Of a stretch of 64,000 nucleotides of DNA, positions 14,412-63,700 are shown piece after piece. Position 1 is the stretch's first letter. Each line of letters starts with the position of its first letter. Under the pieces are notes generated by a model, which saw nothing but the letters and a program-made list of their open reading frames with translations, was not told the origin of the DNA and did not search any database. The translations under genes were made by a program, and so were the position numbers. The DNA comes from Cenarchaeum sp. (GTDB taxonomy: Archaea > Thermoproteota > Nitrososphaeria > Nitrososphaerales > Nitrosopumilaceae), in contig CBDESU010000001.1 in assembly GCA_965242695.1 (NCBI GenBank), positions 416,001 to 480,000 on the forward strand. Direction: 5' to 3'.

Positions 14412-14682
14412 TGCCGTGCGCGCCGCGCCGGCGCTATTAAAGCCGTCCGGGGCCCCCTGCGCATTCCGGATCGGGCCGTCCGCGCCGGGGTTCGCAGCGG
14501 CCCCGATCGGGCGCAGCCTCGGCGCGGAATGCGCCGCATCGCAGCGGCCGGGCGTTCGTGCGCCGGCGGTGGGTGCCGGGGCCTGCCGCCGGCGCGGCGC
14601 GCCCAGCAGGGGGCGCGGGCACTGCGATCGGCCCGCGATCGGCCGCCTAGATACATATAAGGTCTTTCCGGCCCGCGCGTGC

Positions 14683-17448: not shown

Positions 17449-18191
17449 TTTCCTCACTCAGCAATGGCCGAAACGCATTGCCGCTCCGCCATTATTCCGG
17501 CGGGGCGCCCGGCGCGCTACTAATAAACCCTGGGGGGCGGACTCGATCTTCGTCGTGCGCCTGCCTGCCTGCCCTGCAGCCCTCTGCGGGGCGTTCGCGG
17601 CAACCGCCCGTGCGATCGCTGGGAGGGGGACAGTTCGCGCTGCGGGGCGGGGCTGCATTCGGCGGACTCCCACCCCCTGTCGGCGGGCAGGGCGGGCGTG
17701 TAGCGGAGTTGGGCGTGCAGCAGCGCCCTGATCGCATCGTGTGCCGCCGCAGCACAACACATTAATGGTGCAGTTGTGGCTTGCCGGCATGGACGGTTCC
17801 AAGCGCGGCAAGCGGGCAACCGAGAGCCGACGACTTGACGGTAGCAGGCCATACGTGTCGGACATATGGGACATTGAAAAACCGGCGACCTCTAGGCCCC
17901 CTCGAAGGTCTGACTGATTTTTTTGCATGTGATACAATGCCGCATACGAACCGGGGCGGGTCGCTGCCTGGAGGTCGAATCTCATGTTGCCATGAGGCGG
18001 CCCCTATTGCACATCGTCACCTGTGCGTGCATAGCCGATTAGTAATGTTTATAAGCAGGTACTTTATATTGGTTAAACGGTACTTATTTCAAAATCGCCT
18101 TGGTAGTCGGCACGTTTGAATGGGCGCGATCTAGAATACTTAACCCAAAAAATATGTATAGTATGTCAAGCTTGACAGTCTATTGTAAGGC

Positions 18192-29900: not shown

Positions 29901-32645
29901 CCGGGCGGCGCGCCGCCGAACGCGACCGGCAGCGTGGCGATTGACGGCACGGCCGTCATGTCGCCGGGAATGGACATGCGGCTCGGCAACGGCACGGTCC
30001 AGCGCACGCTTGCCGACGGCCAGTCGCCGTCGGTGCTCGGCGCCACGGCCGTATCGCTCGACACGATACGGGTCTTGTTCAGCGAGCCCGTGGCGGCCCC
30101 GGGAACAGGCGCCGGCGGCTGGTCGGTGTCGGGCCGCGACGCGGCGGGCCTCGCCGTCGCATCGATCCGGGACGTTGCGGAGCCGTCGAACTTGCTCGAC
30201 CTCACACTGGGAGGCGATCTGCCCGACACGGCGCCCGACGCGATAACCCTCTCGTACCGCCCGGCCGACGGCGGCAGCGTCGAGGATGCGGCCGGAAACG
30301 GCCTTGTTGCCTCGTCGACGAGCGTCGCAGACGGGATCGCCCCAGAGGTTCGATCTGCCGTCGTTTCGGGGCCAAACGAGGCCGAGGTTCGGTACACGGA
30401 GCCGATGCGGGCCGCGCCAGGAGCGTACGCGTCAGTGATGCTGTCCTCGGGCGGGGGCACGCGCATGGTCGACGGCATCGAGGGCAACGGGACCCAAACC
30501 CACACGGTCTTGTTCGGCGGCGATCCGGCGGGGCCGAATGCGACCGGCGTACTGGAGGCGGATGCGGCGGCGGTGCGCGATGCGGCGGGTCATGCGCTAG
30601 CCGCAGGCGGCGCGATCGTGCTTGCCGACGGCCAGTCGCCGTCGGTGCTCGGCGCCACGGCCGTATCGCTCGACACCATCCGGGTCTTGTTCAGCGAGCC
30701 CGTGGCGGCCCCGGGCACGGGAGCCGGCGGCTGGTCGGTGTCTGGCCGCGACGCGGCGGGCCTTGCCGTCGCCTCGAGCCAGGACGCCGCAGGGCCGACA
30801 GACTCGCTCGATCTTGTCCTTGACGCCGATCTGCCCGACACGGCGCCCGACGGGGTGGTGATCTCGTACGATCCGGCAGGCGGCAACATTGCCGATCCGG
30901 TCGGCAACGAGCCTGCCGCCTCGTCGACGGACGTTGTCGACGGGATCGCCCCAGAGGTGAGGTCCGCCATTGTCGCGGGGCCGAACGCGGCCGAGGTTAT
31001 GTACACGGAGCCCGTGTGGGCCGCGCCCGGCGCGTACGCGTCCGTCATGCTGTCCTCGGGCGGCGGCCTGCGCGTGGTATCCAGCCTGGCGGGCAACGGG
31101 ACCGCCGTGCATACGGTGGCGTTTGGAGGCGAGCCTGCGGGGCCGGGGGAGACGGGCGTGCTAGAGATGGATGCGACGGCGGTACGCGATGCGGCCCGGC
31201 TTCCGCTCGGGACAAACGCCGCACTCCTGCTAAATCTGGCCGGCGCGGCGCCGCAGCCGGGCAACGCCACGGCCAGGGCCGTGTTTACTGCGACCAACAT
31301 CGCGACCATAACGTACTCGGCGGCGCTCGGGCCGCCGGCTGGCCACGACGGCCCCGTGTACGCCGCGGTCGAGATCAACGCAGAGGACGGCAGCGGAGGC
31401 GGCACGCGCCCCGTGTCCAGCGTGGAAGGGCTGGGCACGGCGGTCCACACCGTCGCGTTCGGCGGGGACGGCGTGGGCCGCAACCAGACGGGGACGATCA
31501 CGCTTGCGGTCGACCTGGAGGGGACGGGCGCCGCCGCAACCGGCATCGACCCGCCGCGGTTTGCGGCAGGCGAGATACCCGCCGCATCCGGCCTGACCGT
31601 GCAGACCGTCCTGGTTGCGCAGACGCGGCCGCCGCCGGTCAGCATCGAGCCGGACGGCTTTACCAGGGCGGTCGACGGCACCGCGGCCGGCGGGGATGCG
31701 CGCTTGGCGATCAACGTGACGGGGCTGGCCGGCGCGCCGGACGCGCAGGGCACGGCCGCGTTCCCGACAGAGGCAGTCACGCTGACGGCCTCGTTCGGCA
31801 CGGTGACGTTCCCGCCGGGCGTCACGGCAACATCCGTCCCCGCAGCCGGCGCGCTCTACCTGTACGTAGACGACGGCGGGACTTCCGACGAGGCCGCCAC
31901 CGCCGCCTTGGCGTATCCAAACTCTGGCGGAATGGTGCTGCGAACGATCGTCGAGGCCGGCGGCGGCGACGGCCGCATCACGTTCGACATGCCCGTCCGC
32001 ATATCCCTTGACGGCCAGGCCGGCGGCCGCGCGTTCTACATCGAGGGCGGAGCGGACGGCGCGATTATGCCGATCGACCTGGCATGCGCGGCAGACGACA
32101 CGGAGCGGGTCCATCGCCAGCTCGACGGCGCAGGCAAGTGCAGGATCGAGTCGGGAGGCGACATGGTGGTCCACACGTACCACCTGACGCGGTTCGGCAC
32201 GGCCGCATCCGAGCGCGGCACGCCGCCGCCCGTCGACCACACGTGCTCGATGCGCCTCGGCACGGAACGCCTGGCAGCGCAGGCCCGCCCCGGCGACTAT
32301 TCCGATGCGGCCGAGCAGGCGGTGGTAAACTCGGGGTCGCTGCCGTTCTCGAGCGTCGAGCTCGAGGCGACCCCGTGGTCCGTCACTCCCCTCCCGGGCG
32401 CGCCTGTCCAGAACACAACATTGTCGCAGCTTCCGACCAACGCCACGCTGCTGAGCGCGGCCGGATCGGATGCGGGATTTGTCCCGCTGCCGGCAGGCGG
32501 CGCCGCCGTCGTCGCAAGCGGCCTTGGCGGCGGCCTAGAAGCGCCGCTGTGGTTCATGCTCAACCTGACGGGGCACGCCCAGGTGGAGGGAGCCGAACTG
32601 GCGCAGCGCGTCGAGTACACGGCAGAGTGCGCCGGCGCCAGGTAG
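26931..32645 (+). CDS. Large secreted surface protein 1 (1,904 aa; Ig-like repeats, HL/T module, no obvious membrane anchor)
   Basis: RRRR + hydrophobic signal + DADA; repeats ending D.AGN...D...P; many NxS/T sequons; HTYHLTRFG at ~32172-32198. True start may be 26908 (see findings). Confidence 0.9.
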   Translation: MRHGPAAWGLSRQSWGGGGAEHRPRRRRIAAVVPALAVAAAAAMLAVAAPPDADAGSGTIDQCYRLGPSDIDSIRFRSSNGTYKIGDTIDIRVTVINTRAFDTGTSGNPSARHVLEHSKIRLETGGESDGFADFVTAPSYGRWVDYRYTVRAGDNSSDLDYHSTRALYWRLIGHGAYDHNVVHTNSGDFECLLPQPGGPGSLSNKSDIGIDGIAPRVANVTLSPPDGGYGLDDGVEFNVNFDDTVVYSGAAPILLLNLSSGEFRNATYASGNNTDRLTFAYVVQGGDDASDVGYNGTMALTTAGSMTDKPGNPANLTLSASGSLGRSGPVPIDATRPTVLNVTSPNGTGPHTEGSTIAIRVLFSENVEVVTTGGAPRIELDTGSPGGRYADYDSDASTAQTLAFSYSVAEGDETLDLAYANRMALSENGGIIQDEVGNRATNLTLADPAAAGPLGALGPIRLDAKGPAYVSVSSTTPNGTYGIGSSVAVTVTFNENVVVDTTGGTPRIALDTGSPGRYADYDSAASTARTLAFSYTVTEGDDTADLDYTAAAVILPNGGTIQDTVGNGADLDLPLPGTDGLLDSGTIRLETVRPVVEHVSSEAGTGPHSVDTVIDVRVKLDEAVIVNNSSGTPTIRLETGTTDRNATLVGGNNSDTLVFSYTVRQGDETDDLNYTGTTALSANGATIRDVAGNGADLDLPDWGNGDTLGERKDIAVDTAAPVVWFAHAEYPNHIRVTFDDPVASGSLNASAGWSISGPSAVNLSIAALGPVTMSAPRDNIVFTLNDTLPDTAPDLELSYDAGAGGIADEAGNLLQDTTGIVVADRIRPKIDEALITGNREITIAYTEPVAASQGAYSGLEIGGDARQLDPYDTDALLRQHAITFAGDPAPVPEPPSSMTVDGRAVLDGADQPNPLGDDILTVDIQDGRVLDVFSSRITGPDTAVIAYTRNAEAPLEAYSSLVVGGQDRMITGLAGGGAGAGSHFHTLTFAPGGAPPNATGSVAIDGTAVMSPGMDMRLGNGTVQRTLADGQSPSVLGATAVSLDTIRVLFSEPVAAPGTGAGGWSVSGRDAAGLAVASIRDVAEPSNLLDLTLGGDLPDTAPDAITLSYRPADGGSVEDAAGNGLVASSTSVADGIAPEVRSAVVSGPNEAEVRYTEPMRAAPGAYASVMLSSGGGTRMVDGIEGNGTQTHTVLFGGDPAGPNATGVLEADAAAVRDAAGHALAAGGAIVLADGQSPSVLGATAVSLDTIRVLFSEPVAAPGTGAGGWSVSGRDAAGLAVASSQDAAGPTDSLDLVLDADLPDTAPDGVVISYDPAGGNIADPVGNEPAASSTDVVDGIAPEVRSAIVAGPNAAEVMYTEPVWAAPGAYASVMLSSGGGLRVVSSLAGNGTAVHTVAFGGEPAGPGETGVLEMDATAVRDAARLPLGTNAALLLNLAGAAPQPGNATARAVFTATNIATITYSAALGPPAGHDGPVYAAVEINAEDGSGGGTRPVSSVEGLGTAVHTVAFGGDGVGRNQTGTITLAVDLEGTGAAATGIDPPRFAAGEIPAASGLTVQTVLVAQTRPPPVSIEPDGFTRAVDGTAAGGDARLAINVTGLAGAPDAQGTAAFPTEAVTLTASFGTVTFPPGVTATSVPAAGALYLYVDDGGTSDEAATAALAYPNSGGMVLRTIVEAGGGDGRITFDMPVRISLDGQAGGRAFYIEGGADGAIMPIDLACAADDTERVHRQLDGAGKCRIESGGDMVVHTYHLTRFGTAASERGTPPPVDHTCSMRLGTERLAAQARPGDYSDAAEQAVVNSGSLPFSSVELEATPWSVTPLPGAPVQNTTLSQLPTNATLLSAAGSDAGFVPLPAGGAAVVASGLGGGLEAPLWFMLNLTGHAQVEGAELAQRVEYTAECAGAR

Positions 32646-32852
32646 CCCCCGCCCACTCCACTCTGGGCGCCGCGGCCCCTGATGCGGCTGCCGCATCGGC
32701 GCGATCCACCCCGTCCTGTAGCGCAACCGCCGCCTCGATCGGCCAAAAATCCCCCCGCAGGCGCGAGTGGGGGGGGGGTGAACAACTTTTGGGATCCTGC
32801 AGGCACGGCAGGCGGCCAGCACACTTAAGAGGTTGCAGGGCGGCGGCGGGCC

Positions 32853-35800
32853 GTGCATGAGGCCATAAGCGTCTCCGCCTTGCGAGCGCGGCAGATGCCG
32901 GGATCCAATTCTAGATGTGGGGGGGGGCGGGAGTCGGAAAGGGGGCGGCGCGGCGTGAATAGGGGCGCGGCGCGCCGGCGGCCAGCCCCTGCCGCGGCGC
33001 TTGCGCTGGCAGCTGTTGCTGTCGCCGCCGTGGCGATCGCGCTGCCGGCCGGAGGCGGAGACGGCGCCGTCTGCCGCACTGCGCCGCCGATCTGCCGCAC
33101 TGCCGCCGCCGTCCCGCCAGAGCTCTGCGATGCGCCCGCCGCGTCCCATGCGCCCGCGCCGCCGGCCGCCTCGGAATGGCTCGGCCGGCTTGCCGGCGAT
33201 GCGCTAGGCGCCGTGCTTCCTCCGGCAGAGGCGGCCACGTGCTCCCGGATCGCCGATGCGTACATCTTTGACGGGGACAAGTTGGTGATCACGTACACCA
33301 GGCCGGTAGACATAAGGTACGACCACATAAGGCCGTCGACCGACGGCACGATATCAAGGGCGCACTGCACGGGCGGCGACAACCGCGCCGCCTGCTACGA
33401 CGTACTGGCGCACCACGAGGCATGCTACGTCCAGACGCTCAGGGGCCCCCAGCTGAGCGGCTCCGGGGTAGCCTCCTGCAACGCCGTCTCCGAGCGGCAC
33501 CCATGGGGAGGGCGGGAGATACTGAGCGTTCAGGGCAACTCGACGTTCGATCTTGTCACCATCGGGACCCACATAAAGTTTTGGGAAGACTACTATTACA
33601 GCGACACGGGGTACAGAAGCACCGCCCACCTGACGGACGGGACGACCGCGAGGTTCTCGGCCGTCCGCACGGGCGGCGACTGCTTTCCGGCCGGCACCTA
33701 CACGGCACGGGATGCCCTGCCTCCGTCGGTCGACCGCACGCTGGAGCCGACGCTGGATCTTGCGGCCGGCCAGCTGAAATTCAGGTCTACAGAGCCCCTC
33801 TCTGGAACCGCCCTGCCCGGCACCATCAGGATCGCCGGCGTCACGGCGCTCGACGCGGCCTCGCGCGTGAGCGTCTCGCGAGGCACCGACGTCACGGTGG
33901 CCCTCACCCCCGGCGACCATGATCTGCTCAACTCGCGGCTCGCCCGGGCGTCGACGGACACCTTCAAGACAGTCAACCTTGGGCTGCACGACTATTCGGG
34001 CAACGCCTTCCATACGGGCAGGTGGTGGCAGACCTTTGCGATCGTCCACGACAACGCCGCGCCCACGCTGCAGTACTGGTGGCTGGACTTCAACACGGGA
34101 GTGCTTACCCTGAGATTCAACGAGGCCGTGCACTGGATATACACCCCGTACGTGTACCTGGAAGATCCGCGCGGCGGCAACCGCCACTCCCTTGCGTCCG
34201 CCACCGCCCCGTCCAGCCTGCGCACCGCGACCGTCGAGCTCACAATTCCACCGAGCCTGCTCGAGACGCTCGGCGACGTGCACAGGGGGCACAAGACTGC
34301 CCAGCACACCGGCCTGCGGCTAGACCTGCTGCGCGGCGCCACGGCCGACAACTTGAACAACCGCTTTGCGGGACTGCTCGACAGGGAGATCGGGGTCACA
34401 GAGGACAGCGTGGCGCCGCGGATCGCGTCCGGCACGGCGCCTGCGCTGGACATGGCCCGGCACACGCTGGCCCTCACGTTCGACGAGCGCATCGACGTCT
34501 CCGAGTCCAACGCGGGCAGGATAAAGGTGGCCAATTCCACCGACCATGTGTACCTGCAAGGCGGGTCGGTCGGCGGCCGCGACGGCAGGTCAGTGGTCGT
34601 GTCGTTCGGCAGCATCGTCAAGGCTGAAATCGCCGACCTTGGCACGCCGCTGACCGTCTCGCTCGATGCCGGCGCATTCAAGGACATGTGGGGCAACGGC
34701 AACGCGGCATCGCAGGCGCTGGCCGCGACCGTCGGGCGCGACTGGGTGCGGCCGGGATTTAACGGCGCCTCGCTCGACCTCGAGACGGGCGACCTGGCGG
34801 CAACGTTCAGCGAGGCAGTATACGTCGACCGCGTATACGCGGTAGGCTATACCCTGCACGTGGCGGACCAGACTGCGCCGCAGCAGAAGATCCGCGTGAA
34901 CCTGCGGGGCGCGGACGTTGTAACGGACGGCCGGTACGCCGACGCGGTCACGCTGCGGCTGACCGCGGCGCAGAGGGCCGCCGTCATCGGCGCCGGCGGC
35001 CCGTCGCCTGACGTACGGATAACCGTCGGCGGCTGGGCGTTCAGCGACTATCCTGTGGGCAACCATGGGTGGTACTTTCCGCTACCGGGGTCGCAGGTGG
35101 CCGTCTCGCCCGACACCGGCGCGCCGTCGAACGCGAGCGTGCCCCTGTTGGACCTGGCCAACGGGACGATCCGCATCCAGTTCGACGAGCACGTCGACCG
35201 GTCGGCGTTCAACGCGTCGGGCATGCGGGCCGAGGCGGCCAACGGCTCGTCGCTGTCCCTGGCCGGCGCCGTGCCGGCTGCCGCGTGGACGGGCCGAACG
35301 GCCGTGCTGGATCTGCCGCCCCCCCTCGCGGCTGCGGTCAGGCAGGCGTACGGAACCGGCGGCCAGCTGCTCCTGACCGTGCCGAATACGGCGTTCTCGG
35401 ACCTGTCGGGAAACCGGTTCGCCGGCATGGCCAGGGTCGACATGGTCGCCGTGGGAGAGACGGGCCCGCTGCTGCTAGTGCACGGACCCCGCCTGGACCT
35501 GGGCACCGGCATCCTTGAGATGGGGTTCGACCGGGCCGTGCTCGCGCCCGACACCCTTGCAGGCGTCTCCATAGGCGGCAACGGGACCTCGCCGGTGCCC
35601 CTGGACGGCGCCGGCGCGAGCCTCGCCGGCACGCCGCCGAGCAACCTTTCGATCGCGCTGACGGACGCGCAAAAGGCCGGCGCGGCGGCGGCGCACAGGG
35701 ACGGCGGATACCTGACGCTCCACGTGCCGCCGACCACGTTCAGCGACGTGCACCACCACCGCTTTGCGGGCCTCCAGAACGCCGCGCTGCAGGCCGAGCC

Positions 35801-38800
35801 CGACGCGCTGCCGCCCGCGCTGGAATCGGCCCCTGCGTTCAACGTCGCCGCCGGCACCGTGTCGATGTCGTTTGACGAGTACGTCGTACTCGGCACGGTC
35901 GCTCCGGGCGGGATCGACGTGTACAACCCGCACCGGGAAACGTCCCTGGCCGGCGCCGCGGTGTCCGCGCAGGGAGCGGGAGGCGGAGGAGTCTTGGACG
36001 CGGGCGTTGTGGTCACGCTGACGCCGCTGCAGCGCGCCCTCGTGTACATTGCAATGCACAGCGACCCGAACATATACGTCCGCGTGTCGAACTCGTCGAT
36101 ATTCGACGTGTCGGGCAACGCGTTTGCAGGCGTGGACACGGGCGCGCCGCCCGGCACGGGCGGCAATCCGGGCAGCCCGCGCGCCGCCGCCGACCCAGGG
36201 CTGCCGCCGCCCGCACTGCGGCCGGGATCCGAGCAGGCCGTTCCGCGGGGCGGCGGCGGAGATGGCGGCGCCCTGCCGCTTCCGCACCTGCCGGGCCACA
36301 AGGGGCCGATCGGGCCTGCGCCGCCGGGCGAAGGCACTGGCGGCGGCGCCCCGATGCGCTCCAGCCACCTGTCGAGCACGCTGGTGCTCAACCGCGGCGC
36401 GGACTCGCCGGTGCGCCTGGACCTGAATACCGGTATACTAGAGGTCGAGTTCACCTCGTGGGCGTACCTGCCGTTGACCAACCTGACGGAGGCGGCCATA
36501 CGCGCCGGCGGCGTCAATGTGACGCTCGAGGGTGCCGCCGTCGACACATCGCACGGCCTGCTGGGATTCTTCAACGAGACGGTCGTCATAAACCTGACGG
36601 CTGCGCAAAAGGCCGCCGTCGCGGCGGCCGGCACAGAGGCGCGGCTTGTCGCGGCCGTCGGGTCGTTTGCCGACGCTTCGCGTAAACTGTCCCTGGCCAT
36701 GAACGAGGCCATCGACATAACGCCCGACACGACGCCCCCGTCGCTCGTGCGGCAGGGCGCCGGCGGGCCGGCGCTGGATCTCGGCGCCGGCACCGTCGCG
36801 CTCGCGTACGACGAGCACGTGGCAGAGCCGGGCGGCGGGTTCGATGCCGGCCTGCTCGCGGTCGATGCCGGCGGGGAGCGCATGCGGCTCGACGGCGCGC
36901 AGGGCATGGATGCCGTCAACGAGACCGTAACGGTGTCCCTTGCGCCGGACCAAAAGGCGCGGCTCGCAGCCGCAGTGTCGGCGGCCGCAGGCATGGGCGC
37001 GGCCGCGACGATCGATGTTGCGCCGGGCGCGGCGGCGGACGTCTCGGGCAATGCCGCGCCGGGCGCGGCGGACGTGCCCCTCTTGGTGGGCGGCGACACG
37101 GCGGCGCCGATGCTTGCATCGCCGCCGGTCCTGAACCTGGGCACCGGCATGCTCGTGCTAGACTTTGACGAGTACGTCGCCGTCGGGGATGTCAGGCCGC
37201 AGGACGTCGCCGTGGCGGACAGGAACGGGGGCGGAAGCGAGTCGCCGTCGTCGGTGGCATCAGAGGGCGACGGCGCCCGCATACTGCTCGCATTCCTGCC
37301 GGCGCAGTCCGATGCCCTCGCGCTGTCGAACGCGACGGCGGGGCCCCTCGCGCTCACAATCGCCGGCTCGGCCGGCATCGCCGACCTGTCGGGCAATCCG
37401 TTCGCGGGGCTGTCCGGCGCAAACCTTACGGTCGTCGACGACTCGACGCCGCCGGCCCTCCTGCCCGGGACGATCCCCCAGCTGGACATCGGCGCCGGCA
37501 CGGTCTCGATGATGTTCACCGAGCACATTCCGGCCGACGGCATCGACCTGTCGGGCGCGGCGATCGAGGACGTCAACGGCGCAAGCCGCATCCCGCTCGC
37601 CGGCGCGGCCGTCCTGCCGCCGTCGGGCCCAGAGGTGGAGCGCAGGACAATCGACGACGACACGCTCCGCATAGTCCTCACGCCGGCCCAAAGGGCCGCC
37701 GTCGCACTGGCCAGCCTAGAGGCCGGCCCCGTCCGGATCGACGTCCCGTCGTCGGCCATAGCGGATGCGGCCGGCCTGCGGTTCGCCGGCCTGTCGAACG
37801 CGCCGCTCGGCATCGCGCCGGATGCTACGCCTCCCGAGATCCCGCCGGGCTCGCCGCCCGTCCTGGACCTGTCCTCGGGCCTGCTCGCCGTCCCGTTCAC
37901 CGAGCACGTCGATGCGCCCGGCGCGAGCATCCTGGGCGCGTTCCTGACGGCCTCTGGCGCATCGAACGCGGCCGCTCCCTCTACGATTCCGCTCGCCGGC
38001 GGGGCGGCAATCGTCGTGCCTGCGCCGCCCGGCAGCGCCTCCTTGACGGTGCGGCTGTCTGCCGGCCAGCTGGCGGCAGTGGCCGCCGCCGGCGCCTCTT
38101 CCGCGGTAAACCTGACCGTGCCTGCCGGCGCCGTCTCCGACCTGTCGGGCAACCCGTTCGCCGGCCTCGCCGGCGAGCCGATCGCCGTCGTGCTCGACGA
38201 GGCTCCCCCCGCCCTGGCATCCCTGCCGGTGATCGACCTTGACGACGGAACCGTCCTGATTACGTTTGGCGAGTACGTCGATGCCGGCGCGGCAAACGCC
38301 ACGGGCATATCCGTCGCGGGGCCGGGCGGGGCCGGCCGGCCGGGCGATCCGCATGCGGGCCCCGCCATGGTGGGCCTGGAGGGGGCCGCGATATCCGTCC
38401 ATCCGCCGCCCCCGTACGGACGACAGGGGGGCCAGGCGGACTTGCCGGCATCGGCGGCCGCATCCCTGTCGATCCTGGTCACGATGACGGCCGAGCAAAA
38501 GGCCGCCGCCGCCGCATCGGCGGCCTCGGAGGTATCCATCGACGGGCACACCGCCTCCATCCACGACATGTCGGGCAACCGGTACGGCGGGATCGACCGC
38601 GGCCGAGCCCTGGTCGCGCCCGACGAGACTGGCCCCGCGCCGGCATCGGCCTCGCTCGACCTGGGGGCGGGGACGCTGTCCATATCGTTTGACGAGCACG
38701 TGCACGCCGGGGCCGCCGTCGACCCGGCCGGCCTTGTGGTCGCAGTCGCGCCGCCTGCGGGCCAGTCCGCCGCGCTGCCGCCCCCTGCCGCCGTCCGGGT

Positions 38801-41800
38801 CGGACTTGACGGCGCCGCGGCATCGGCCTCGGAGAATGCGGTCACGGTGGTGCTGGCGGGGGATCAGAGGGCCGCCCTGCAGGATGCCGCCGGGCGGGCT
38901 GCGGGAGGCGCCCCGGCCATATCGCTCGACATTGCGCGCGGATTCGCCGAGGATCTGGCGGGCAATCCGATGGCCGCCGCCCGCGGCCTGGCCGCATTGC
39001 TCGTGCCGGATCGGACGCCGCCGGGCCTGGCCGCCGCCGGCATCGGCCCCGTCCTGAACCTGGCGTCGGGAACGCTGACGCTCGCGTTCGACGAGTACAT
39101 CGACGCGCAGGGAGTGCGCCTGCACGACGTCTCGATCGCGGGCCCCGACGGGCAGAACCGGACGGCCCTTGGCGGGGCATCGCTTGCGGGAATCGCCGAC
39201 TCTGGCCTTGTCACGGTGCGCCTGACCCCCGGGCAGGCCGATGCCGCAAGGTCGCTCAACGCGAGCGCCGCCGGCCGGCCCCTCGTTGCGAGCGCCGCCG
39301 CCGGCGCGTTCCAGGACCTGGCGGGAAACCCGTCGCCCGAAAACCTCTTCTCCGGCGCCGCCCTGTCCGCAACGGGGGAGGCCGGGCGGCCGGGGCTTGC
39401 AGGCATGCCCGTGCTGGACCTGGCCAACGGCACCGTGCGAATCGCGTTCGACAGGGCCGTGGAGGCGCCTCTGGCCAGCCTGCGCGGCATCTACGTCATG
39501 GGGGCGGACAGGACGGGCGGGGCGACCAGCCTTGCCGGCGCCGAGATGTACAGCGCGCCGGGATCTTCCGAGATCGCCGTCGGGCTTACCGGCGCGCAAA
39601 AGGCGTCGATCGCAAGATCGTACTCCCTGACGGGCTCGGAGGGCGCGACGATCGACGTCTCGGCCGCGGCTGGCATCGCCGACCGCTGGCGCAACGCGTT
39701 CGAGGGCCTGGCCGCCGAGCCGATGGACGTTGTTCCCGACGGCGCGCCGCCGGGCCTGTCCGGCGCGGCAGTCGACCTGTCGGCTGGCACCGTCCGGCTC
39801 GACTTTGACGAGTTCGTCGCAGCCGGCGGCGCGGATCCGTCGGCGGTGCGCATGGCATCCTCGGGCGGCGCACCGGACATACCGCTTGCCGGCGCCCGCA
39901 TCCTTGCCGCCGCGGACGGGCCGTCCGTCCTCCTTGGAATGACCGCATCGCAAAAGGCCGCCGCCGCCGCGGCCCACGCCGCCGGATCGTCCCTGTCGAT
40001 ACTGGCCGGGCCGGGCGAAGTGGTGAGCGACCTGTCGGGCAACGCGTACGCGGGCGCGGCCGGGGCGCAGCCTGCGCCGGCCGACGTCGCGGCCGACGCC
40101 GCATCGCCGTCGCTCGATGCGCGCCTCGGGGATCCCGTACTGGACCTGGGCTCGGGCGTGCTGACGCTCGCATTCGACGAGCATCTTGCGCCCGGCAATG
40201 CCGGCGGCGCCGTGTCGCTCCTGCCCGGCGCGCCGGGGTCGGCCCCGGTCCAGCTTTTGCCCCTCCCTCCGTCGTCGGGCAGCGGCAACCGGTCGGGGCC
40301 GTCCGTCGAGTCGTCGACGGCGGCATTCCAGCTCTCGCCAGTGCAGAAGGGGAGCCTGCTCGCCGGCGGCGCCGGAGCCGGCGCGGCGGCGGCCCAGCTC
40401 GTGCGCCTCGACATGGGGCCTGGCGCCCTTGCCGACCTGGCGGGAAACCCGTCCGCCGCGGCCCTGGCGCGGCCCGTCCAGGTCGTCCCAGACTCCGCCC
40501 CGCCCTCGCTTGATCCCGACCTGCCGCCGGCGCTCGACCTGGGCAGCGGGGCGCTGCGCATTGCATTTGACGAGCCGATCGACATCCTGTCGTCCGACCT
40601 GTCGGGCCTGTCGCTGTCGGCATCGGCCTCCGAAGGCGGGGATGCGCCAGAGCCGGTCGCGCTTTCGGCGGCCCACCTGGAGCCGCCGTACGGCTGGGCC
40701 TCTTCGGTGACCGTCCTGCTCACGAGGGACGAGAGGGGGCAGCTGGGGGCCGGCGTGGCCGCGGCGGCGGCCGCCGCCGGCGACGGCGCCTCGCCCGGGG
40801 TCGTACTGCGCATCGCATCCGGCGCGTTCGCCGACATGTCGGGGAACGGCATCGAGGCGGCCGAGCTGGCCGTCGAGGCGGCCGCCGATGCCGACCCGCC
40901 GCACCTTGACCGGTCCGCGCCGCCGCTGCTCCACACCGGCGCCTCGCCGCCGAGCCTAGAGTTCGACTTTGACGAGTACGTGGACGTCTCCGGAATCGAC
41001 ACGTCTGGTATAGTACTGGGGGCCGCCGGGGCCAACCTCAGCGTGCCGCTTGCCGGCGCGTCCGCCTACGCGGCGCAGCTTGGGCCCGGGCAGCAGGGCG
41101 ACGGCTACCGGGTCAGGATCCCGCTCACCGATGCGCAGGCCTCGGCGGCCGCATCCGCGCTCGCCGGCGGCGCGCGGCTGGTCGTCGACGCGCCAGAGGG
41201 GGCGTTTGCCGACCTGGCCGGCAACGCGTTTGCCGGCCTCGGAGGCCACGGCGTCCTGGCAAGCGGCGACGTCGCGGCGCCCGCCATGGCGGCCTCGCCC
41301 CACCTGCACCTGGGCCTGCACGTGCTGACCCTGGCGTTCGGCGAGCCCGTAAGGCTTGCCGCCGACGGCCTGGCCGGCATCGAGCTGTCCGGCTCGAACG
41401 GCTCGCACAGGACGTCGCTCGACGGCGCGCTAGCGCCGCCCGGCCCCTCGACGGCGCTGCGCATCGAGCTTGGGGCCGCGCAGGCCGAGCGGGCAAAGTC
41501 CGCGCTGCGGGCCGACGGCGGCCTGGCGATATCGATCTCGGCAGAGGCGGTGCAGGACCTCTCGTACAACCACTTTGCGGGGCTGCGGGATGCGCACGTG
41601 GATGCAATCCTCGACGCGAGGGGGCCAGAACTGGTCGAAGCGGGGCGGCATGCGCCCTCGCTCGACCTTGCCGGCGGCCTGCTCACCGTCCAGTTCAGCG
41701 AGGCCGTGGATGCGGCGCGGTACAACCTGACGGGCGCGACGATATCGCGCGCCGCCGGCGCCGGCGGCGGCCCGCCGGTGGATCTTGGCGGCGCGACTGT

Positions 41801-44800
41801 CCTGGCAGGCGGCGCCGGCGGCGGCCAGCCGTCGCCGACGACCCGCATTGCGATAACGGACCTGCAAAAGTCGGCGCTTGTCGGAGGCGGCTTCGGGGCG
41901 GCGGCCTTGGGGCAGGCGGCCCTCCTGTCTATTCCGGCAGGAGCCTTTTACGACATGGAGGGCAACGCCGCGCCCGCGGTGGACGGGGCGCCGCTGGCGG
42001 TTGCCCCCGATGCGGCAGGCCCGTCGTTCGACTCGCATGCGGCCCCGCCCGTCCTGGACCTGGAAAGGGGCATCCTCGAGGTGCGCTTTGACGAGCCGGT
42101 CGAGATCTCTTGGCCGGCAGCCAGCGGCGGCGTTCCTGCATCGGGGCCGCTCCCGAGGCTGGACATTGCAGTGTTCGACGGCTCGTCGGGAGGCGACGGG
42201 CGGCACCGCGTGCCGATTGCCGCGCCGCCGGCGGAGCTGCCGCAAGAGGGAGGCGCCGCCAGCAGAACGATCTCGATCTCGCTCGATCCGGGCCAGAGGG
42301 CCGCCCTGGCCGATGCAATCGACGCCTCTGCGCTGCTCGGCTTTGGGGCCGGCGCGGTCCTTGTCGCAGGCGACGGCCTTGTGCGCGACCTGTCCGGAAA
42401 CGGCCTTGCGGGATACGCCGCCGGCGCAGGGGGAACAGGCGGCACGGCGCTGGCCGTCGTGCCGGATGCCGCTCCGCCGGCCCTCGACCCGCGCCGCCCG
42501 CCCGTGCTGGACATGGGATCGGGCATGCTGACGGCGTGGTTTGACGAGTATGTAGTCCTGGCGGCCGGCCCTGCCGGCCCCGCCGCGCTGGAGATTGAGA
42601 TGAACGGAACCGGAACCGGAACCGGAACCGTCGGCGGATCCCTCTCCCTGGCCGGCGCCTCGGTGCAGGCGCCGCCCGCGGACGGATCCGAAGAGGTCGT
42701 CGTGCGTTTGACGCACGACCAAAAGGCGTGGCTGGCCGCCGCCGGCGCCGCCGGCCCCGATGCGCGGCCCGTCCTGCGCGTGGGCCCCGGCGCGGCCGCG
42801 GATCTGCACGGAAACCCGAACGCGGCCGCATCGGCGCCGGCCGTGCTCGTGCGACCCGATGCGGCCCCGCCGCGGCTAGAGGCCCCGCCCGTCCTGAACA
42901 CCGCCCTGGGGGACGTCCACTTTGATCTTGACGAGTTTGCAGACGCGCGGCGGGCCGCCCCTGAGGGGCTGGCGATCGAGAATGCGGACGGCTCGCAGCA
43001 CGTGCGCCTTGCGGGGGCCGGAGCCAGGGCCGTGCCGGCCGGGGCGGGGCTGCCTGCCGACTATTCGGATCGCATCGACGTCGAGCCGGCAGGCGCGCAG
43101 CTTGCCGCCATACTCGGGTACGCCTCGGCAGGCGGCCCGGCCGCGGTCCGGCTCAACATGTCCGGCGCCGCATTCGAGGACATGGCCGGCAACGCCATCG
43201 CGCCGCTTGCGCGCGCGCCGCTGACTGTAACCGACGACGCCGGCGGCCCCGATCTGCTGTCCGTGCGCGTCGACCTCGGCGACGGGGACGTATCCCTGTC
43301 GTTCAACGAGACCGTCGATGCCGCAGGCGCGATCCTCTCGCAGATGCGCCTTGGCCCGCCGGGCGGCGCAGGCGGCGGCATCTCCCTTGCCGGAGCGTCC
43401 CTGCTGCTGCCGCACGGCGTAGAGTCGGACAGGATCGAGCTGCAGCTGTCCGGCGCGCAAAAGGCCGCCGCCGCGGCGGCGCACGCCGCATCCGCCCCGG
43501 GAAGCGGCCTGGCCCTTGCCGCCCCGCCGGGCGCCGTCGACGACGCGTACGGCAACCATGCCGGACGCCTGAACGCCAGCGCGGCGGTCGAGCCAGACGC
43601 GACGCCGCCGGCGCTGCTGCCTGCCCATTCGGGCCGCGACGCGCCGCACCTCGACCTTGGCACCGGGGTGCTAACGCTCCGGTTCAGCGAGCATGTCGCC
43701 ACGGCGGCCATCGACCCGTCGGGCATATCCGTGCGCGGCGCCAGTGCGGCGGGCGACGCCAGCGGCGGCAGCGGCCTGGCGGTCAATCTCGCCGGCGCAT
43801 CCGTATCGCAGGCCCGCGAAGGGCCCTACTCGGACTCGATCTCGATAAGGATGGCGCCGGAGTCAAAGGCGGCAGCGGCTGCGTCCGTCGGCCCCCGCTC
43901 GCTTGCCGGCCTGCTCGACATCGGCGCGAACGCATCGGTTGCAGACCCGTCGTCGGTGGGCATGCTGCCCGTGTCCGGCGCGCCGCTGCTTGTGAGGCCC
44001 GACAGGTCGCCTCCCGTCGTCGATGCGGCCCGCTCGTACGTAGACCTGCGCGACGGCACGGTGGCGATCGCGTTTGACGAGTACGTCGAGGCGGTCGACA
44101 CGTCGAGGATGGCCGTCGGCGCGCAAGGCGCCGCCGATGCGGTCTCTTTGGGATCCTTGTCCGCCCCCGCGGCCCCGTCCGATACGGTGGTCGTGCGCAT
44201 GACGGCAGACCAGACGCTCGCAGTCGCATCTCTCCTCGAGGCCGCCTCGGCCGGCGGCGCAGAGGCGGAGGGGCGCGCCGTCCTGCACATCGGGCCGGGA
44301 GCGCTCGCCGACGCGTCCGGCAACCGGTTCGCCGGCACCCCCGCCGGCGCCGGCCTGGTCCCGGGCTCTACGCTGCCGCCGATATCCGTAATCGGCGCAT
44401 CCGTGACCGCGCCCGGCACCGTCGAGATCGAGTACTCGCACGCCGTAGAGTCCTCTCCAGAGGACTATGCGCTAGAGGTGGACGGCGAGCGGCGCACGAT
44501 CGCCGGCGTGTCCGGCTCGGGCGGCGCGGTGTACGCGGTATCATTCGAGCCGGCCGATGCCCGGCCGGATGCGGCCGGAACGGTCTCGATCGGCAGGCTG
44601 TCGGGCCCCGGCTACCTGTTTGGCGGCGCCGATGCCGCTGCGGTGTCCGACGGGCAGGCGCCGAGCGCGGTGTCCGCCGCCGCGGTCGGCGCCTCGGCCG
44701 TATCGCTGCACTTTGACGAGCCGGTCGCCGGCGTCGACGCGTCCGACTTGGCCGTAGCAGGGGTCGGCTCGAGGGCCGTCGAGATCGCCGGCGTGTCCGG

Positions 44801-47800
44801 CTCGGGCGCATCGCGGCTCGTCCTCGTCGGCGCGCCGGCGTTCGCAGGCGGCGCGTCGGGGACGATCGAGGTGCTCGCCGCCGGCGCGTTCGAGGACCTG
44901 GCCGGCAACGCCAACGGCGCGCCTGCGCGCATCGACGTACAACCGGCCTCCGTGTCCGTCCGCGCCGAGGGGCCGGCCCCGGTCGTCCTCACGGCCGACA
45001 CGGTGGTGCGCAACGTGACGGGCGCGGCGCCGCGCATCGACCTGTCGGCGGTCAACGGAACCTTCCCCGAGGCCGGCGACTTTGCGGTCGTGGTGCGGGG
45101 CGCCGGGGATGCCGCCCCGTCCGCCACGGTCGTCTTTCCGGCCGGGACGTCGGCCGTCTCGGGGCTGCCTGCCGACTCTGTGATTGAATTCTCGACGGTC
45201 GCCCGAGCCGTGCCCGACAGGGCCGTGATCGGCGGCGGCGAGATCGGCATCGTCGTCGAGCTTGGCCGCAACGGCACCGTCGTGTTCGACAGGCCCGTGC
45301 GGATAGTGCTGCCCGGGGCGGCCGGCCACGCCGCGTTCTGGATGGGCGCCGACGGCGCGGTCTCGCCGATCGGGCGGTGCGCCGGCGGCGTGCCGGATCC
45401 CGTGCCCGCCGGCGCCGCCGGGGAGGCGGAGGCGGCCGCCGCCGCAGAGGCGCACCTCGGCGGCAGCGGAGAGTGCGCCGCCGACACCGCATCGGGCGCC
45501 AAGGTGATCTACACGCACCACTTTACCGCGTTCGGGACGGTGGCGCCGCCCGCCGCCCGGGAGCCGCTGCCGCCGCTGGCCGGAGCGGCCGCCGGGGACG
45601 GGGACGGCGCGCCCGCGCCGCCGCCGGCGGGCGCATGCGCTGCCAACCTCACAGGGTGCTCGTTCGAGGCATACGATGCGCCCTCCGTCGGCGGCCTGCG
45701 CCCTGTCGGACCGGGCGCGGCGTTTGGCGGCATGCTGTACGCGGCGGGGCCGGCCTCGAACGCCCCGCTCGGCGAGTCCCTGTACGCGATCGACATGGGG
45801 CGCGGCGGACCCGGCGCCGTTGCCGCCTCGGTCTCGGAGATCGAGCTGCGGATATTCGACGGCATCGACGCCAGGGTGGACATACTCGGCGTGTGGGCCG
45901 GCGGCGGGGCGCCGGATCCGGCGGGCGCCGCATCGACTCCCCCGCTGCTTGCCGCCGCCGCGACGTACCAGATACCCGTCCAGGGGGCCGCCGCCGACGG
46001 AAGCCTGTCGCCGCCGGTGCCCGTACTGCTCGTCATCGACGCCGCCGCCGGATCCCTTGCGGGGCATATCGACCTGTCGTATGTCAACCACAGGGGCCTG
46101 CTCGCCTCGGCCGGCGTGCCGGCGCTGCTCGACGCCTATGCGGCCGCCGGCGCCGCGTACGTCGGGATGCCGCCCGACCCGGCAGCCGCGGCCGGCGACG
46201 GGGCGCCGCCGGCCACAGGCCCCATCCTGCTCGTAAACGTCTCGGATCCGTCGGCCCCCGCACTGGTGCCGATATACGACGACGATGCGGCATCGCCCCC
46301 GTCGCCGGCCGGATACTACTATCCGCGCGAGGGGTGGCAGCCGACGGCGATGGCCGCCCGCGGCACGGCCGTGTACATGGTCGGCGAGGCGTGGCGCCCG
46401 GCGGAAGGCGGCGCTGGCGCCGCCGCCGCCGGCCAGGGCACTGCCTCGCAGGGCCTGCACGGGCTGCACACGCTGTCGTTTGCGGCGGGGGGGACGGCCG
46501 GAGCCATAACGCCGCGCTACTCACTCGTCTCGAGCATTGCGGCGGCGGGCGAGCAGGGAACCGATGCCGATCCCTCGCAATACGCGGCGATCGGCATGGC
46601 CGTCGACCCTGTCCGCTCAAAGCTGTACGTCCTGTACGGGAACGGCACGATCTCGGTGTACGCACTCGATGCCGCCGACATGTCCATGCCGCCGGTGCCG
46701 TCGTTCCTGTACCACCTGGACGCGTCCGTGCGGGATCCGCGCGACCTGGCCCTTGACGCCGGGACGGGGGTGCTGTACGCGGCCGACGGCGGATCGGTGC
46801 GGGTCTACGATGCCGCCGCCGACATTCTTGTCGCGACGGTGGCCGATGCCGCCGCCGGAGCGGCCGGAGTCTCCAGCCTGGTGCTGGCCGGGCCGCCGCC
46901 CGGCGCCGCCGCCGCGACCGTGTACGCATTGCCGGCCGATCCGTCCGCCCCCGTGAGAATAGTGGGCATCCTCGGTGACATGGTCGGCGGAGGCGAAGGC
47001 GACGGCGCCGGCGAAGGCGGCGCGACCGATCGGCAGCCTGGGCCGCCCCCCGTCGTAGTCGCCGCGCCGCCCCCGGCGCCATCCGCGGGCCTGTTCTTTG
47101 GCGGAGGCGGCGGCGGAGGCGGCTCGGGCGGCGGCGGATCGGGACCGACCGGGCTGGCCGCCCGCCCTGATGCGGTCGTGGTCCGCTCCGTATCCTGGGA
47201 CTGCAATGACGGCACGATGCGGATAGTAGTGGCCAGCGCCGGCGAAGGCGGCGGGGCGGCGCCGGACGTGGCCGTGCTGTCGTCCGCCGGCGCAGCCGCG
47301 GCGCGCAATACGGGCGAAGCATCCGGCCAGGGACTGTTCACGTACGAGGCGCCGCTTCCAGGCGACGGCGTAGTCTCGATCAGGGCCGTGCTGGCCGACG
47401 GCCGCGCGGTGGCTACGGCGTCAAAGACGGTCCGCACGGACGGCCAGTGCGAAGGCGAGGTGGCGTTTGACGGAGGCCGCCTCCCTGCCGCCACCTCTGC
47501 CGAAGCGGCCTCTGCCGACGCCGCCTCTGCGCCGTCGGACGCATCCGGACTGTCGGGGGCGGATGCGCAGCCTGATGCCGATGCCGAGCCGCCCGCATCT
47601 CCGCGAACCGGCGGCGCCGCCTCTTCAGATCCTGATGCCGAGCCGGCCGCCGCGCCGGAATCGGAGGCTCCGCCGGGGCCCGCAGCGGCGGCATCTACGC
47701 CCGAGCCCGGGCCCCCAGCCGGCGAAGCCGCGCAGGCCGAGCCAGTGGCGCCGCGGCCCGATGCCGCCGCATCCTCAGAGGCGGCGGATCCGGCAGATGC

Positions 47801-48359: not shown

Positions 48360-48745
48360 CCATGCTTGATCGGGCATGCGGTGCGGCCGATCCCATGCCG
48401 GTTCCGCCCCCACCCCTGCGCTCCTCCGGCGGCATGGCGTCCCTGTCGGGGCTGCCGTGCCGGGCATCGCCCGCCGCCTCCTCCTCGCATGGCCGTACGC
48501 GATCGACGCACCGGCATAATCGTACATCGACCACTGCGACGCCGCATGCCCCCGCAGTCCGCCTCGCAGCGGCGGGCCCCTCTTGCCGCGTCGGGCCTGG
48601 GCACCGCCGCATGACCGAGATGCCGCGACCCTTCCGCCGCATGCCGCCGGCAGGACTCGCCTGGCCTGCAAACGATCGCCATTTACACCGGGGGCCACAG
48701 CTAGGCGGCATTGGACGGGCGGAATGCGGCTGGACGTGATGCGGG

Positions 48746-60700: not shown

Positions 60701-63700
60701 GCCGCGCCGGCCGGCATGTACTCGAACGTGGAGCTGCACCCGGGCGGGCCGCGCGGCATCGCCGGAGTCGACGGGTCGGGCGGCGCGCTGCACACGATCC
60801 GCCTGGACGGCGAGGCGGCCGCGTCGCATGCCGCCGCCACGCTCGACATTGCCGCGGTTCCGGCGGCCGCCGGGGACTCGGGGCATCGGTTTGCCGGCGC
60901 GCAGGGGGTGCGCGCCGCCGACGGGCAGGAGCCCCGAGCGGCGCGGGCCGTCGCGTTCTCCGGCTCGGCCGTCCTGGTCACGTTCAGCGAGGCCGTCAGG
61001 GGAGCCGATGCGTCGGGCCTGTCGCTGGAGGGGGCGGCCGGCGGCGATCCGCTCCGGCCGCTGTCCGCCGGCGGAACGGGCGCCTCGCGGCTCTACGACT
61101 TTGCCGGCGCGCCGCTTGCCGAGTACGCGGGCGGCATGGATGCGGTCCTGGCCGCCGGCTCGTACGGGGATGCGGCGGGCAACCAGGGCGCGGCGGCCCG
61201 CATCGGCGTGCGGCCCGCACCGGACGGGTTCGAGTCGCCCGCCGGCGCGCCGGTCCCGATCAGGCAAGACATGGCGGCCACGTCCATATCGGGGGATGCG
61301 CCGAGCATCGACGTCTCGCACATTGCCGACGCGCCGTTTCCCGACCGCGCCGTAGTCGTCTCGTCGAACGCGTCGAACGCGACGGTCACGTTCCCGCCGG
61401 GCGTGGCGATAACGGGCGGCCTGCCCCCCGACGGCGTCATCTCCGTCCTGCCGGCCGCGCGCGCCGTGGAGGATCGCAGCGGGATAGGTGCCGGCCGGAT
61501 AGTCGCGCTAGTCGAGGTAGGCCCTGCGGCCGGCACGATCGCCTTTGATGCGCCGATCCGCATCGCGCTCGCCGGCGCGGCCGGGGCCGAGGCCTTTTGG
61601 ATCGGCGAGGACGGAGCGGCGCGCCTGATTGCGGCGCAGTGCGCGGCCGACTCGCACGAGGCGGCCGCCGCGCAGCTGCGCGGCGCGGGCGAGTGCGCCA
61701 TGGACTCTGGCCCAGACAAGGTCGTCTACACCTACCACCTAAGCGCGTTCGGGGCAGTCGAGCGGCCCGCTGCCGCTGCCGCCGGCGGGGACGGAGACGG
61801 AGGCGCCGGCGGAGGCGCCGGCGGAGGCGCAGGAGGCGCCGACAGGGGCGCAGGCGCAGGCACAGGCGTAGGAGGCGCGCCGCTGCCGGCCCCGACCGGC
61901 CCCTGCGCGTCCGACGTCGACCTGTGCCGCATATCCTCCGTGTCTGGGTTTGGGCAGGCCGGCGCGGCGCTCGGCCCCGTCGCCGCGGCGCCTGCCTCGC
62001 ACGGCGGCCTTGTGTACATTGCCGAGGCGTCGGGCCCCGCCGGCCCCGACGGCGGCGCCTCCGCCTCCGCCGCCACGTCCATCCTGGCGTACGATCCGGC
62101 GGGCCCCTCGCCCTCGCCGCCGGCGGCGCGCTACGAGGTCGGCGGCACGGTATCGGCGATGATGTTTGATGCGCGGGAGGGCCGGCTGGTTGCCGCCTCG
62201 CACGGTGGAGACGAGGGCGGCGGGCCCGCCGGGGCGCCCGCCCGCCTGCACGTGATCGCAGCCGACCTGTCCGAGGGCGCCGACACGCCGCTTGCCTACA
62301 GGGACCGCCTCGGCAGGAATGCGCCCGCCGGCGCCGTCCCTGCGCACCTTGCGGCGGGGCCGGCCGGCATCGTACTGGTCGGCATGAACGCAGAGGGCGC
62401 GGCCCACGACGGGTACATGGAGGACGGGCCGATCCTGTCCGTAGACTACCGCGCCGGAGAGGTGCTGCCCATGTACGGCCCTGGCGAGATCCCGTCGCCG
62501 TCGGGGTACTACTATCCGCTGCAGGGGTGGCAGCCGACGGCGATGGCGGCCAGCTCGGACGGCATGGCGGCGTACATGGCCGGCGCCGTGTGGCTGCCAG
62601 GCAACGACCTGCACACGAGGCCCAACGCGTACGGCCTGCAGGCCGTATCCTTTGACGGCGCGGACGGCCGGTTCACGCCCCGGTACACGCTGCTTGACGG
62701 GGGGCGCCTCGACCTGTCGATCCTGCCCGATCCGGACGGCGGCGAAGGCGGCGCCAGGGCGGGCACGGCGGCGGCCGGAATGGCCCTTTACGAGGCCGCC
62801 TCCCGGCTGTACGTCCTGTTCGAGAACGGGACGCTTGCCGCGTACGGGACGGCGCCGCTCGAGCTGCTCCACGTCGTCGATCGGCTCGGCGCCGGCTCGG
62901 AGCCCGCGGGCCTTGCGATAGACCCCGCCGCCGGCCTGCTGTACGCGGCGACCGGGTCCGGCCTTGCAATGTACTCGGTGCCCGGCGATCGCCTCTTGGA
63001 CTACAGGGACCTGGACGGCATGCCGGCCGGAGTCGCCGTCGCGCCGTCCGATCCGGCCGCCACCGCCACCGGCGGCGGTGCGGGCGGGGCCGTCGCGTAC
63101 GTCCCGACCGCGGCGCCGGACTCGCAGCCGCTGGCCGCCAGGCCGGCCCCTGCCGGCGGCGCGCAGCCGCCGCCCGCGCCGCCGACGCCGCCCGCGCCCC
63201 AGCCTCCCGTCGTCGTGGTGGCCACGCCGCCCGCTCCCGCACAGTCGCCCTTTGGGCCGGGGAGCGGCGGAGGCGGAGGCGGCGGAGGCGGCGGAGGCGG
63301 AGGCGGCGGAGGCGGCGGAGCATGGCCCAGCGTCTCGATACGCTCCGTGTCGTGGGACTGCAGCAGCGCAGTGCTCGAAGCCGTCCTGTCGCACGCGGCC
63401 GGCGCCTCTGTCGACGTGCACGTGTCCTCGTCGGAAGGGAGCGTCAGGGCGCACAGGGCGGCAGCGCAGGGGGCAGGCGATGCGGCCGGCCTTGTCGCAT
63501 ACGAGGCCCCGCTGCCGGCCGATGCGGTGGTGAGCATAAGGGCCCTTGCCGCCGACGGCCGGCTGGTCGGCTCCGACACGCGCACGGTTCGAACCGGCGG
63601 GCAGTGCGAGGGGACGGTCGAGTTTTTGCCGGCAGGGGATGCCGCCCCGGCCGCCGCCCCGGCAGGGAGCGGCGGCGGATCTGCGGATGCCGCGTACGGG

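Follow-up and report, generated by a model that had tools for sequence, protein, structure and literature searches.

A probable self-cleaving MAIN/ZU5-like module in three giant surface proteins of Cenarchaeum sp.

According to a recent preprint, Microbial Autoproteolysis INducing (MAIN) domains are GAIN_B-like beta-sandwiches found in bacteria and archaea (Brogan and Rudner, bioRxiv 10.64898/2026.05.12.724683, 13 May 2026). The family was defined there by PSI-BLAST from the YfkN domain, with about 15,000 matches. The MAIN domain of B. subtilis YfkN is described in that text as cutting between F and S of the motif HFS; the substitution S1346A abolishes the cut, the fragments co-purify, and sodium dodecyl sulphate or heat brings about release from cells. 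MAIN proteins are laid out as signal, passenger, MAIN domain and anchor, and release by force is proposed for their joints. Here we describe a module probably related to these domains in three giant surface proteins, which are encoded in a 64,000-nucleotide stretch of a Cenarchaeum sp. genome (assembly GCA_965242695.1, contig CBDESU010000001.1, positions 416,001 to 480,000 of the forward strand). We call the whole of this stretch the window, and count nucleotide positions from its first letter.

There is also an older computational precedent. Zhang et al. (2012, PMC3482391) united ZU5, GPS and the Nup98 autoprotease in one superfamily, and predicted self-processing for ZU5 domains in large bacterial surface proteins. 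The self-cleaving concept is already known, and because it has been described our finding is confirmatory and holds no surprise. As regards the archaeal proteins themselves, our literature searches found no paper on them. A search that combined ZU5, archaea and autoproteolysis gave nothing on these proteins, and none of the matches listed for surface proteins of Thaumarchaeota and sponges joins Thaumarchaeota and autoproteolysis. For autoproteolytic ZU5-like bacterial cell-wall proteins the matches listed were inflammasome reviews only, and a search for CFI-box-CTERM found no paper.

Three giant proteins and their shared module

Three giant open reading frames (ORFs) follow one another on the + strand of the window, and each encodes a protein with a hydrophobic N-terminal leader. 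In our opinion it is likely that every one of these proteins carries one beta-sandwich module of about 190 residues that belongs to the ZU5/GPS(GAIN_B)/MAIN superfamily and serves as a cis-autoproteolytic joint. A first-pass annotation of the window had singled out the three giants as carriers of such a device. All three indeed carry the module, but it is not peculiar to them: a profile of 11 copies (A3) finds 51 module domains in 49 ORFs of the host genome.

Protein 1 (26931..32645, +, 1904 residues) consists of the leader, a stalk of immunoglobulin-like repeats (Big_5, E-value (E) 1e-15), the module (31608..32240, +, residues 1560-1770) and an anchorless C-terminal domain bracketed by Cys. 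Its module is defined by an alignment of the three window modules (A1), by an AlphaFold model and by Foldseek matches to ZU5. The motif H-L-T stands at 32181..32189 (+; codons CAC CTG ACG, context MVVHTYHLTRFGTA), and the chain is predicted to be cut between Leu1752 and Thr1753. Protein 2 (32853..48359, +, 5168 residues) passes from leader and repeat stalk to the module (44934..45578, +; alignments A1 and A3), a region of about 750 residues and a CFI-box-CTERM sorting/anchor domain (47853..48068, +; NF041770, E 3.2e-19, 68.5 bits with a cut-off of 40). Here the motif is H-F-T, at 45519..45527 (+; codons CAC TTT ACC, context KVIYTHHFTAFGTV), and cleavage is predicted between Phe4224 and Thr4225. 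Protein 3 begins at 48746 (+) and continues past the window end at 64000 by about 447 nucleotides; its full size of 5236 residues, stop to stop, was taken from the genome. Its module (61166..61795, +; alignments A1 and A3) contains H-L-S at 61736..61744 (+; codons CAC CTA AGC, context KVVYTYHLSAFGAV), with predicted cleavage between Leu4332 and Ser4333, and its CFI-box-CTERM lies just beyond the window end (NF041770, E 1.3e-18, 66.6 bits with a cut-off of 40). The first-pass annotation had placed the three motifs at exactly these positions, which we confirm. The motif His is residue 1751, 4223 and 4331 in proteins 1, 2 and 3, and the predicted N-terminal fragments have 1752, 4224 and 4332 residues. 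The order of domains in proteins 2 and 3 is passenger, module and CFI-box-CTERM anchor.

The modules are about 190-200 residues long, and identity to the first sequence of A1 is 35-42% (three proteins). The invariant columns of A1 are F-P-x-G, F-D-x-P-x-R-I-x-L-x-G-x-A-G-x-x-A-F, G-x-D-G, L-x-G-x-G-x-C and T-x-H-x-x-x-F-G. They fit the pattern from which the first-pass annotation had proposed a homologous domain of about 200 residues. The same annotation had reported two Cys upstream of the motif, and both are there in all three proteins: the second is invariant, and the first is displaced by an insertion in protein 2.

What we infer for these proteins is cleavage, association of the fragments and release by force. 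After export and folding, the His at position -2 would activate the hydroxyl of Thr or Ser, which would attack the carbonyl of the preceding Leu or Phe in an N-O acyl shift. Hydrolysis of the ester would then cut the chain between L and T, F and T, or L and S. The strand that opens the new C-terminal fragment, (T/S)xFG(T/A)..., would remain as an inner strand of the sandwich, and a stalk of 1752 to 4332 residues would be held noncovalently on the C-terminal piece. That piece would end in the CFI-box-CTERM membrane anchor in proteins 2 and 3, or in the Cys-bracketed terminal domain in protein 1. Force could separate the joint and so shed the adhesive stalk, although for these particular stalks such release is suggested by analogy.

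Fold, conservation and the profile link to MAIN

The fold was modelled for protein 1. An AlphaFold2 model of its residues 1560-1904, a query of two domains with a 19-row alignment (A2), is confident (predicted local distance difference test, pLDDT, 86.4; predicted template-modelling score, pTM, 0.80). It contains only three short helices, with no apparent helical GAIN_A subdomain. The dyad H-L/T falls at a one-residue break, T194 being the sole non-strand residue between strands 185-193 and 195-201; hence the expectation of the first-pass annotation that the motif lies on a turn before a terminal strand holds in this model, where the break separates the last two strands. When the model was compared with the PDB by Foldseek, a TasA fibre chain ranked first (E 1.4e-4), and seven of the ten best-ranked chains were ankyrin ZU5 (4d8o with E 2.2e-4 and probability 0.99; also 6m3q, 6m3p, 3ud2 and 3ud1). 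The ZU5 domain of UNC5b matched with E 0.016. The ESM Atlas points weakly the same way: of the clusters that bear a name, 'ZU5 domain-containing protein' comes nearest (0.86), and 30% of its members carry PF00791. We treat this as a lead only.

The two putative fragments of protein 1 were also folded as separate chains. The interaction prediction score from aligned errors (ipSAE) was 0.81, against 0.17 for the best control, a mark that 58 of 80 solved complexes and 2 of 110 mismatched pairs reach; since the chains are the halves of a single predicted domain, a pass is expected, and the score informs on the embedding of the strand and not on fragment binding. The runs agreed in at least 96% of contacts with a partner pLDDT of at least 79, and residues 195-200 touch 109-116 and 140-145. 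The prediction thus places the strand after the cut site inside the sandwich, as one of its inner strands.

This geometry bears on the idea that a separate protease or sorting enzyme recognises the motif and processes the proteins in trans, which we consider very improbable. Envelope processing enzymes are to be expected where there are C-terminal sorting signals such as CFI-box-CTERM, and the motif is nearly invariant. However, it lies inside a folded beta-sandwich, with the next strand predicted to be buried between two others, and would make a poor substrate; it is moreover shared by bacteria and archaea whose envelopes and anchors differ greatly. No candidate enzyme came to light, although none was sought.

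Conservation agrees with a joint that cleaves itself in cis. For this we used 233 near-complete copies from 230 proteins (independent E-value at most 1e-5, profile start at or before 60, profile end at or after 177; partial matches were dropped). The His is kept in 227 of the 233 copies and the nucleophile in 226 (222 Thr and 4 Ser), as the first-pass annotation had anticipated for Ser/Thr. Phe or Tyr stands at +3 in 232, and the two upstream Cys are found in all 233 and in 231 copies, respectively. The motif is present in 117 of 120 listed homologues.

Comparison of profiles provides the link to the family whose cleavage has been proven by experiment. Three further alignments were used: A5, of modules with 'DLVIWTKHFTxF' from the Candidate Phyla Radiation (CPR) and Bacillota; A6, of 'KTNHF[TS]' modules from SLH proteins of Bacilli; and A7, with 16 rows, of 'HFSKYAVL' domains of YfkN type and SLH type. 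A7 was built from relatives of the C-terminal domain of an NF006937 equivalog (2808 bits), which supplies its first row, was found among 5'-nucleotidase ORFs of Bacilli and stands in for B. subtilis YfkN. This protein is a multifunctional nucleotidase of YfkN type with 1429 residues, HFS at 1342-1344 and an LPxTATN sorting signal. By hhalign, A3 aligns with A5 at a probability of 99.6% (E 2.6e-24, 156 columns) and with A6 at 95.9% (E 5.4e-9), with the motifs aligned in both cases, and A6 aligns with A7 at 95.6% (E 1.2e-8). To judge by these alignments, the archaeal module is clearly homologous to the 'DLVIWTKHFTxF' module. Its link to the proven MAIN family is, at the level of profiles, transitive through one intermediate and not direct. 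It seems reasonable to us that the modules probably represent a large archaeal branch of the known MAIN-type device and not a new device.

Chance resemblance in low-complexity, high-GC sequence has in its favour that the window has 63-76% G+C (in 4-kb windows) and that the proteins are rich in Ala and Gly. The pattern T[YH]H[LFM][TS].[FY] was followed through all stop-to-stop frames of at least 150 residues of the genome, 3.74 million residues in total. It occurs 38 times, and all 38 occurrences are in module-bearing ORFs, so the motif is not due to chance. Further, the A3 profile matched 1815 cluster representatives at E<=0.001 in a library of 1.84 billion proteins (717 at E<=1e-10 and 98 at E<=1e-30). 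Together with the alignment to bacterial modules these results refute the explanation by chance, to which we assign practically no weight.

Taken together, the fold, the geometry, the conservation and the architecture fit a cis-autoproteolysis module of the GPS/ZU5 superfamily. In that respect the label 'GPS/ZU5-like' of the first-pass annotation stands, but no Pfam GPS, GAIN, ZU5 or Nup98 model matches and there is no GAIN subdomain A. Hence the module is GAIN_B/ZU5-like and is not a GAIN domain.

An uncut spacer or a self-cleaving joint

The observations in this and the next paragraph weigh against self-cleavage. Hmmscan of the three modules against Pfam-A at E<=10 gave no ZU5, GPS, GAIN or Nup98, and a single chance match at E 0.52; we take PF16489 and PF01825 to be the accessions for GAIN/GPS and PF04096 that for the Nup98 autoprotease. 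Pfam ZU5 (PF00791) has no match in the host genome at E<=10. A structural comparison had been proposed together with the first-pass annotation; protein 1 matches mainly ZU5 in it, but the GAIN match is weak (BAI3, E 0.073, probability 0.23). Template-modelling scores (TM-scores) to ZU5 structures are low, 0.26-0.28, because they are normalised to a query that holds two domains. The evidence on fold comes from protein 1 only, the model of the protein 2 module (from the 11 rows of A3) having a pLDDT of 42.6. Direct comparison of A3 with A7 is not significant (8.5%, E 0.004, 28 columns around FDxPVxIxL only), nor is that of A5 with A7 (3.5%), and the A7 profile has no match in the host genome at E<=0.1. 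Finally, the C-terminal fragment of protein 1 has no recognisable anchor: neither CFI-box-CTERM (NF041770) nor a transmembrane-like stretch was found in its tail.

Other points belong to a definite alternative. The module could be a non-catalytic ZU5-like beta-sandwich, a spacer or adaptor between stalk and anchor, in which TYH(L/F)(T/S)xFG forms the buried core of the last two strands and the chain stays uncut. We find this doubtful, yet it has something to recommend it. In the 233 copies the core columns G100, I136, R113, D143, P111 and F108 are as conserved as the His and Thr, and the dyad is thus not set apart by its conservation. The 51 domains of the host genome fall into 35 with HxT, 3 with HxS, 8 with RxS, and one each with RxG, VxT and HxA, while 2 stop short of the profile end. 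Thus Arg replaces His in nine copies, which keep T-Y-R-L-(S/G)-x-F, and two more lose the His or the nucleophile. The strand motif is therefore maintained in paralogues that lack the catalytic base and in which catalysis is unlikely, and conservation alone is no proof of cleavage. Many ZU5 domains are not known to cleave; among them are those of ankyrin and UNC5, the best structural matches here, which are cytoplasmic.

Against the spacer, the His and the hydroxyl persist from archaeal HLT through HFT of CPR and Bacillota to HF[TS] of Bacilli, where the remaining identity is 18-24%. The Bacilli-type modules link in turn to the YfkN-type domain, which is proven to cleave at exactly that dyad. 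The predicted break of one residue between the strands argues in the same direction, as does the fixed place between passenger and anchor, which is that of the proven MAIN proteins. A self-cleaving joint therefore remains our preferred reading, and the Arg-for-His paralogues are, to judge by their motif, probably uncleavable versions of it. Eight of these paralogues, with T-Y-R-L-S-A-F, lie outside the window (for example C1:369890-370453, C1:71533-72096 and C2:1428632-1429219), and in several a CFI box follows.

Some further results concern family models. No Pfam or NCBIfam model lies on the module in the window proteins, in the isolated modules or in two sets of 9 bacterial relatives. Among PDB sequences the A2 profile found no more than two chance matches (E 1.6 and 2.1). 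We rejected the PGF-pre-PGF domain (TIGR04213) as the identity of the module: protein P0345 has TIGR04213 at 437-550, after its module at 215-384. In a sample of 301 genomes of the phylum Pfam ZU5 (PF00791) matched in two, in one of them above the cut-off. One of these matches is in an archaeon that encodes a protein of 716 residues (L019:841-2988, +) with a weak Pfam ZU5 match (20.6 bits), DHLTAF about 45 residues later and a CFI-box-CTERM; from this order it looks like a compact version of the module/CFI-box architecture. Its family (A4, 3 rows) was tried as a bridge and proved unusable, since it aligns with A3 over the motif alone, with a probability of 0.4%.

Distribution, surroundings and comparison with known systems

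Stop to stop, the module-bearing ORFs of the host genome sum to 123,621 residues, which is 9.5% of the genome; tblastn with the protein 2 module found 39 places in its 3.89 Mb. Four more module-bearing paralogues of 5139-5256 residues cluster at C1:887994-1004500, about 400-500 kb downstream of the window; together with proteins 2 and 3 they make up a six-member family of giants that hardly differ in length. The rRNA operon of this genome is matched best by archaeal models for both the small subunit (1450 bits, full length) and the large subunit.

At E<=1e-5 the module is found in 13 of the 41 genomes of the order sample, the host included. All four other genomes of the genus carry it (43, 10, 2 and 1 matches), as do 12 of the 24 genomes of the family; the 16 other families of the sample, each represented by one genome, have no match. 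An earlier scan of genome contigs with A3 gave 5 pattern matches, none of which was confirmed. The 'DLVIWTKHFTxF' type is common in Patescibacteria, Bacillota and DPANN archaea, where a scan with A5 confirmed 167 of 189 pattern matches. Among 251 genomes of Bacilli, modules of A5 type occur in 6, those of A6 type in 8 and the YfkN-type domain in 13. What comes after the module in the bacterial relatives is an anchor of the PG_binding_1, SLH, dockerin, type IX secretion system (T9SS) or transmembrane kind, and judging from such domain orders it appears always to stand between a passenger and the part that holds on to the cell. Two modules in one chain also occur: an archaeal metagenome protein of 1760 residues (P0124) has them at 573-772 and 1404-1607, and an SLH protein of Bacilli (L106) has two KTNHF[TS] modules, with H-x-T/S intact in each module of either protein.

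The tail of protein 1 deserves separate attention. Its terminal domain of about 140 residues (32220..32642, +) is bracketed by two Cys, C213 and C341 in A2, where both are invariant, and it has no Pfam match at E<=10. A profile of the tail finds 42 ORFs in the host genome, 31 with the module and 11 without it. Almost always the domain stands at the extreme C-terminus, the median distance to the ORF end being 1 residue. Of the modules covered to the end of the profile, 27 have a short tail of 100-190 residues behind them. The Cys-bracketed domain seems to be an independent terminal unit and is a candidate archaeal attachment or sorting domain.

It is tempting to go further. The self-cleaving joint might organise a sheddable coat of about 50 members, taking up 9.5% of the genome, in which cleavable H-x-T/S tethers and presumably uncleavable R-x-S tethers coexist, and in which the Cys-bracketed domain, previously undescribed, docks secreted members on the envelope or on the CFI-box giants. 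We offer this as speculation, and think it rather unlikely to be right as it stands.

A few features of the window concern other parts of the sequence. No Pfam family was found at E<=0.01 in protein 2 in the pieces 32853-38852, 38853-44999 and 45519-48356, and there is no Pfam match in the approximately 750 residues between module and CFI box of proteins 2 and 3. That region (45580-47850 in protein 2 and 61800-64000 in protein 3) has a long Gly run and then a conserved 'SVSWDC...' domain. Upstream of the giant genes lie a CshA/DbpA-like DEAD-box RNA helicase (15718-17457, -, E 1e-126) and a YhaM-like HD/HDIG-domain protein (13347-15242, -, E 1e-30). The ORF 5631-8483 (+) contains a region like an IS66-family transposase (E 8.9e-37, 127 bits, under the cut-off of 180).

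If the modules do cleave, this genome would have one of the largest known sets of force-releasable surface tethers, and the GAIN/MAIN principle would extend to archaea that lack peptidoglycan and whose membrane anchor is a CFI box. Natural controls on the function of cleavage are also at hand in this genome, in the His-to-Arg paralogues and in the anchored and anchorless tails. Since the large module family (the 1815 representatives mentioned above) is not yet represented in Pfam or NCBIfam, deriving a model from the present alignments would improve the annotation of many giant 'hypothetical' surface proteins. What is particular here is the scale, the CFI-box anchor, the anchorless terminal domain and the His-to-Arg subfamily.

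How does the archaeal module compare with what has been described? The ZU5 domains of ankyrin, UNC5 and PIDD include the best structural matches, whereas Pfam ZU5 does not match. In FIIND, the ZU5-UPA unit of NLRP1 and CARD8, the cut is at the end of a ZU5-like sandwich, inside which the first strand of the next domain stays; FIIND is cytoplasmic and acts in innate-immunity signalling. Protein 1 likewise has a small second beta domain directly after the module, and it is predicted to be packed on the module. The ZU5 domains of polymorphic toxins, as described by Zhang et al. (PMC3482391), sit near the N-terminus of RHS proteins.

With the GAIN/GPS domains of adhesion G-protein-coupled receptors and polycystin-1 (PMC3321182), whose mechanism the preprint on MAIN domains describes, the archaeal proteins share the place of the H-L-(T/S) dyad, with a predicted cut before an embedded last strand, and an adhesive ectodomain on the N-terminal side and a membrane anchor on the C-terminal side. 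They differ in having no apparent helical GAIN_A and no seven-transmembrane receptor behind the module. SEA and bacterial SEAL domains (PMC10556640) are reported also to undergo extracellular autoproteolysis with fragments that stay associated, and force sensing has been proposed for them. Their fold and motif differ from those of the archaeal module, and we found no similarity between the two.

The closest known system is the MAIN domain of YfkN. Like it, the archaeal module is predicted to be a beta-sandwich whose H-x-(S/T) occupies the turn that leads into the last strand. Both belong to very large proteins that run from a signal through a large adhesive or enzymatic passenger and the module to a surface anchor, for which the terminal domain of protein 1 is a candidate. 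The archaeal module, in contrast, has HLT, HFT or HLS and not HFS, with two near-invariant Cys before the motif; its anchors are CFI-box-CTERM or the terminal domain of about 140 residues, and not sortase, SLH or peptidoglycan-binding ones, and it occurs in 51 copies in a single genome.

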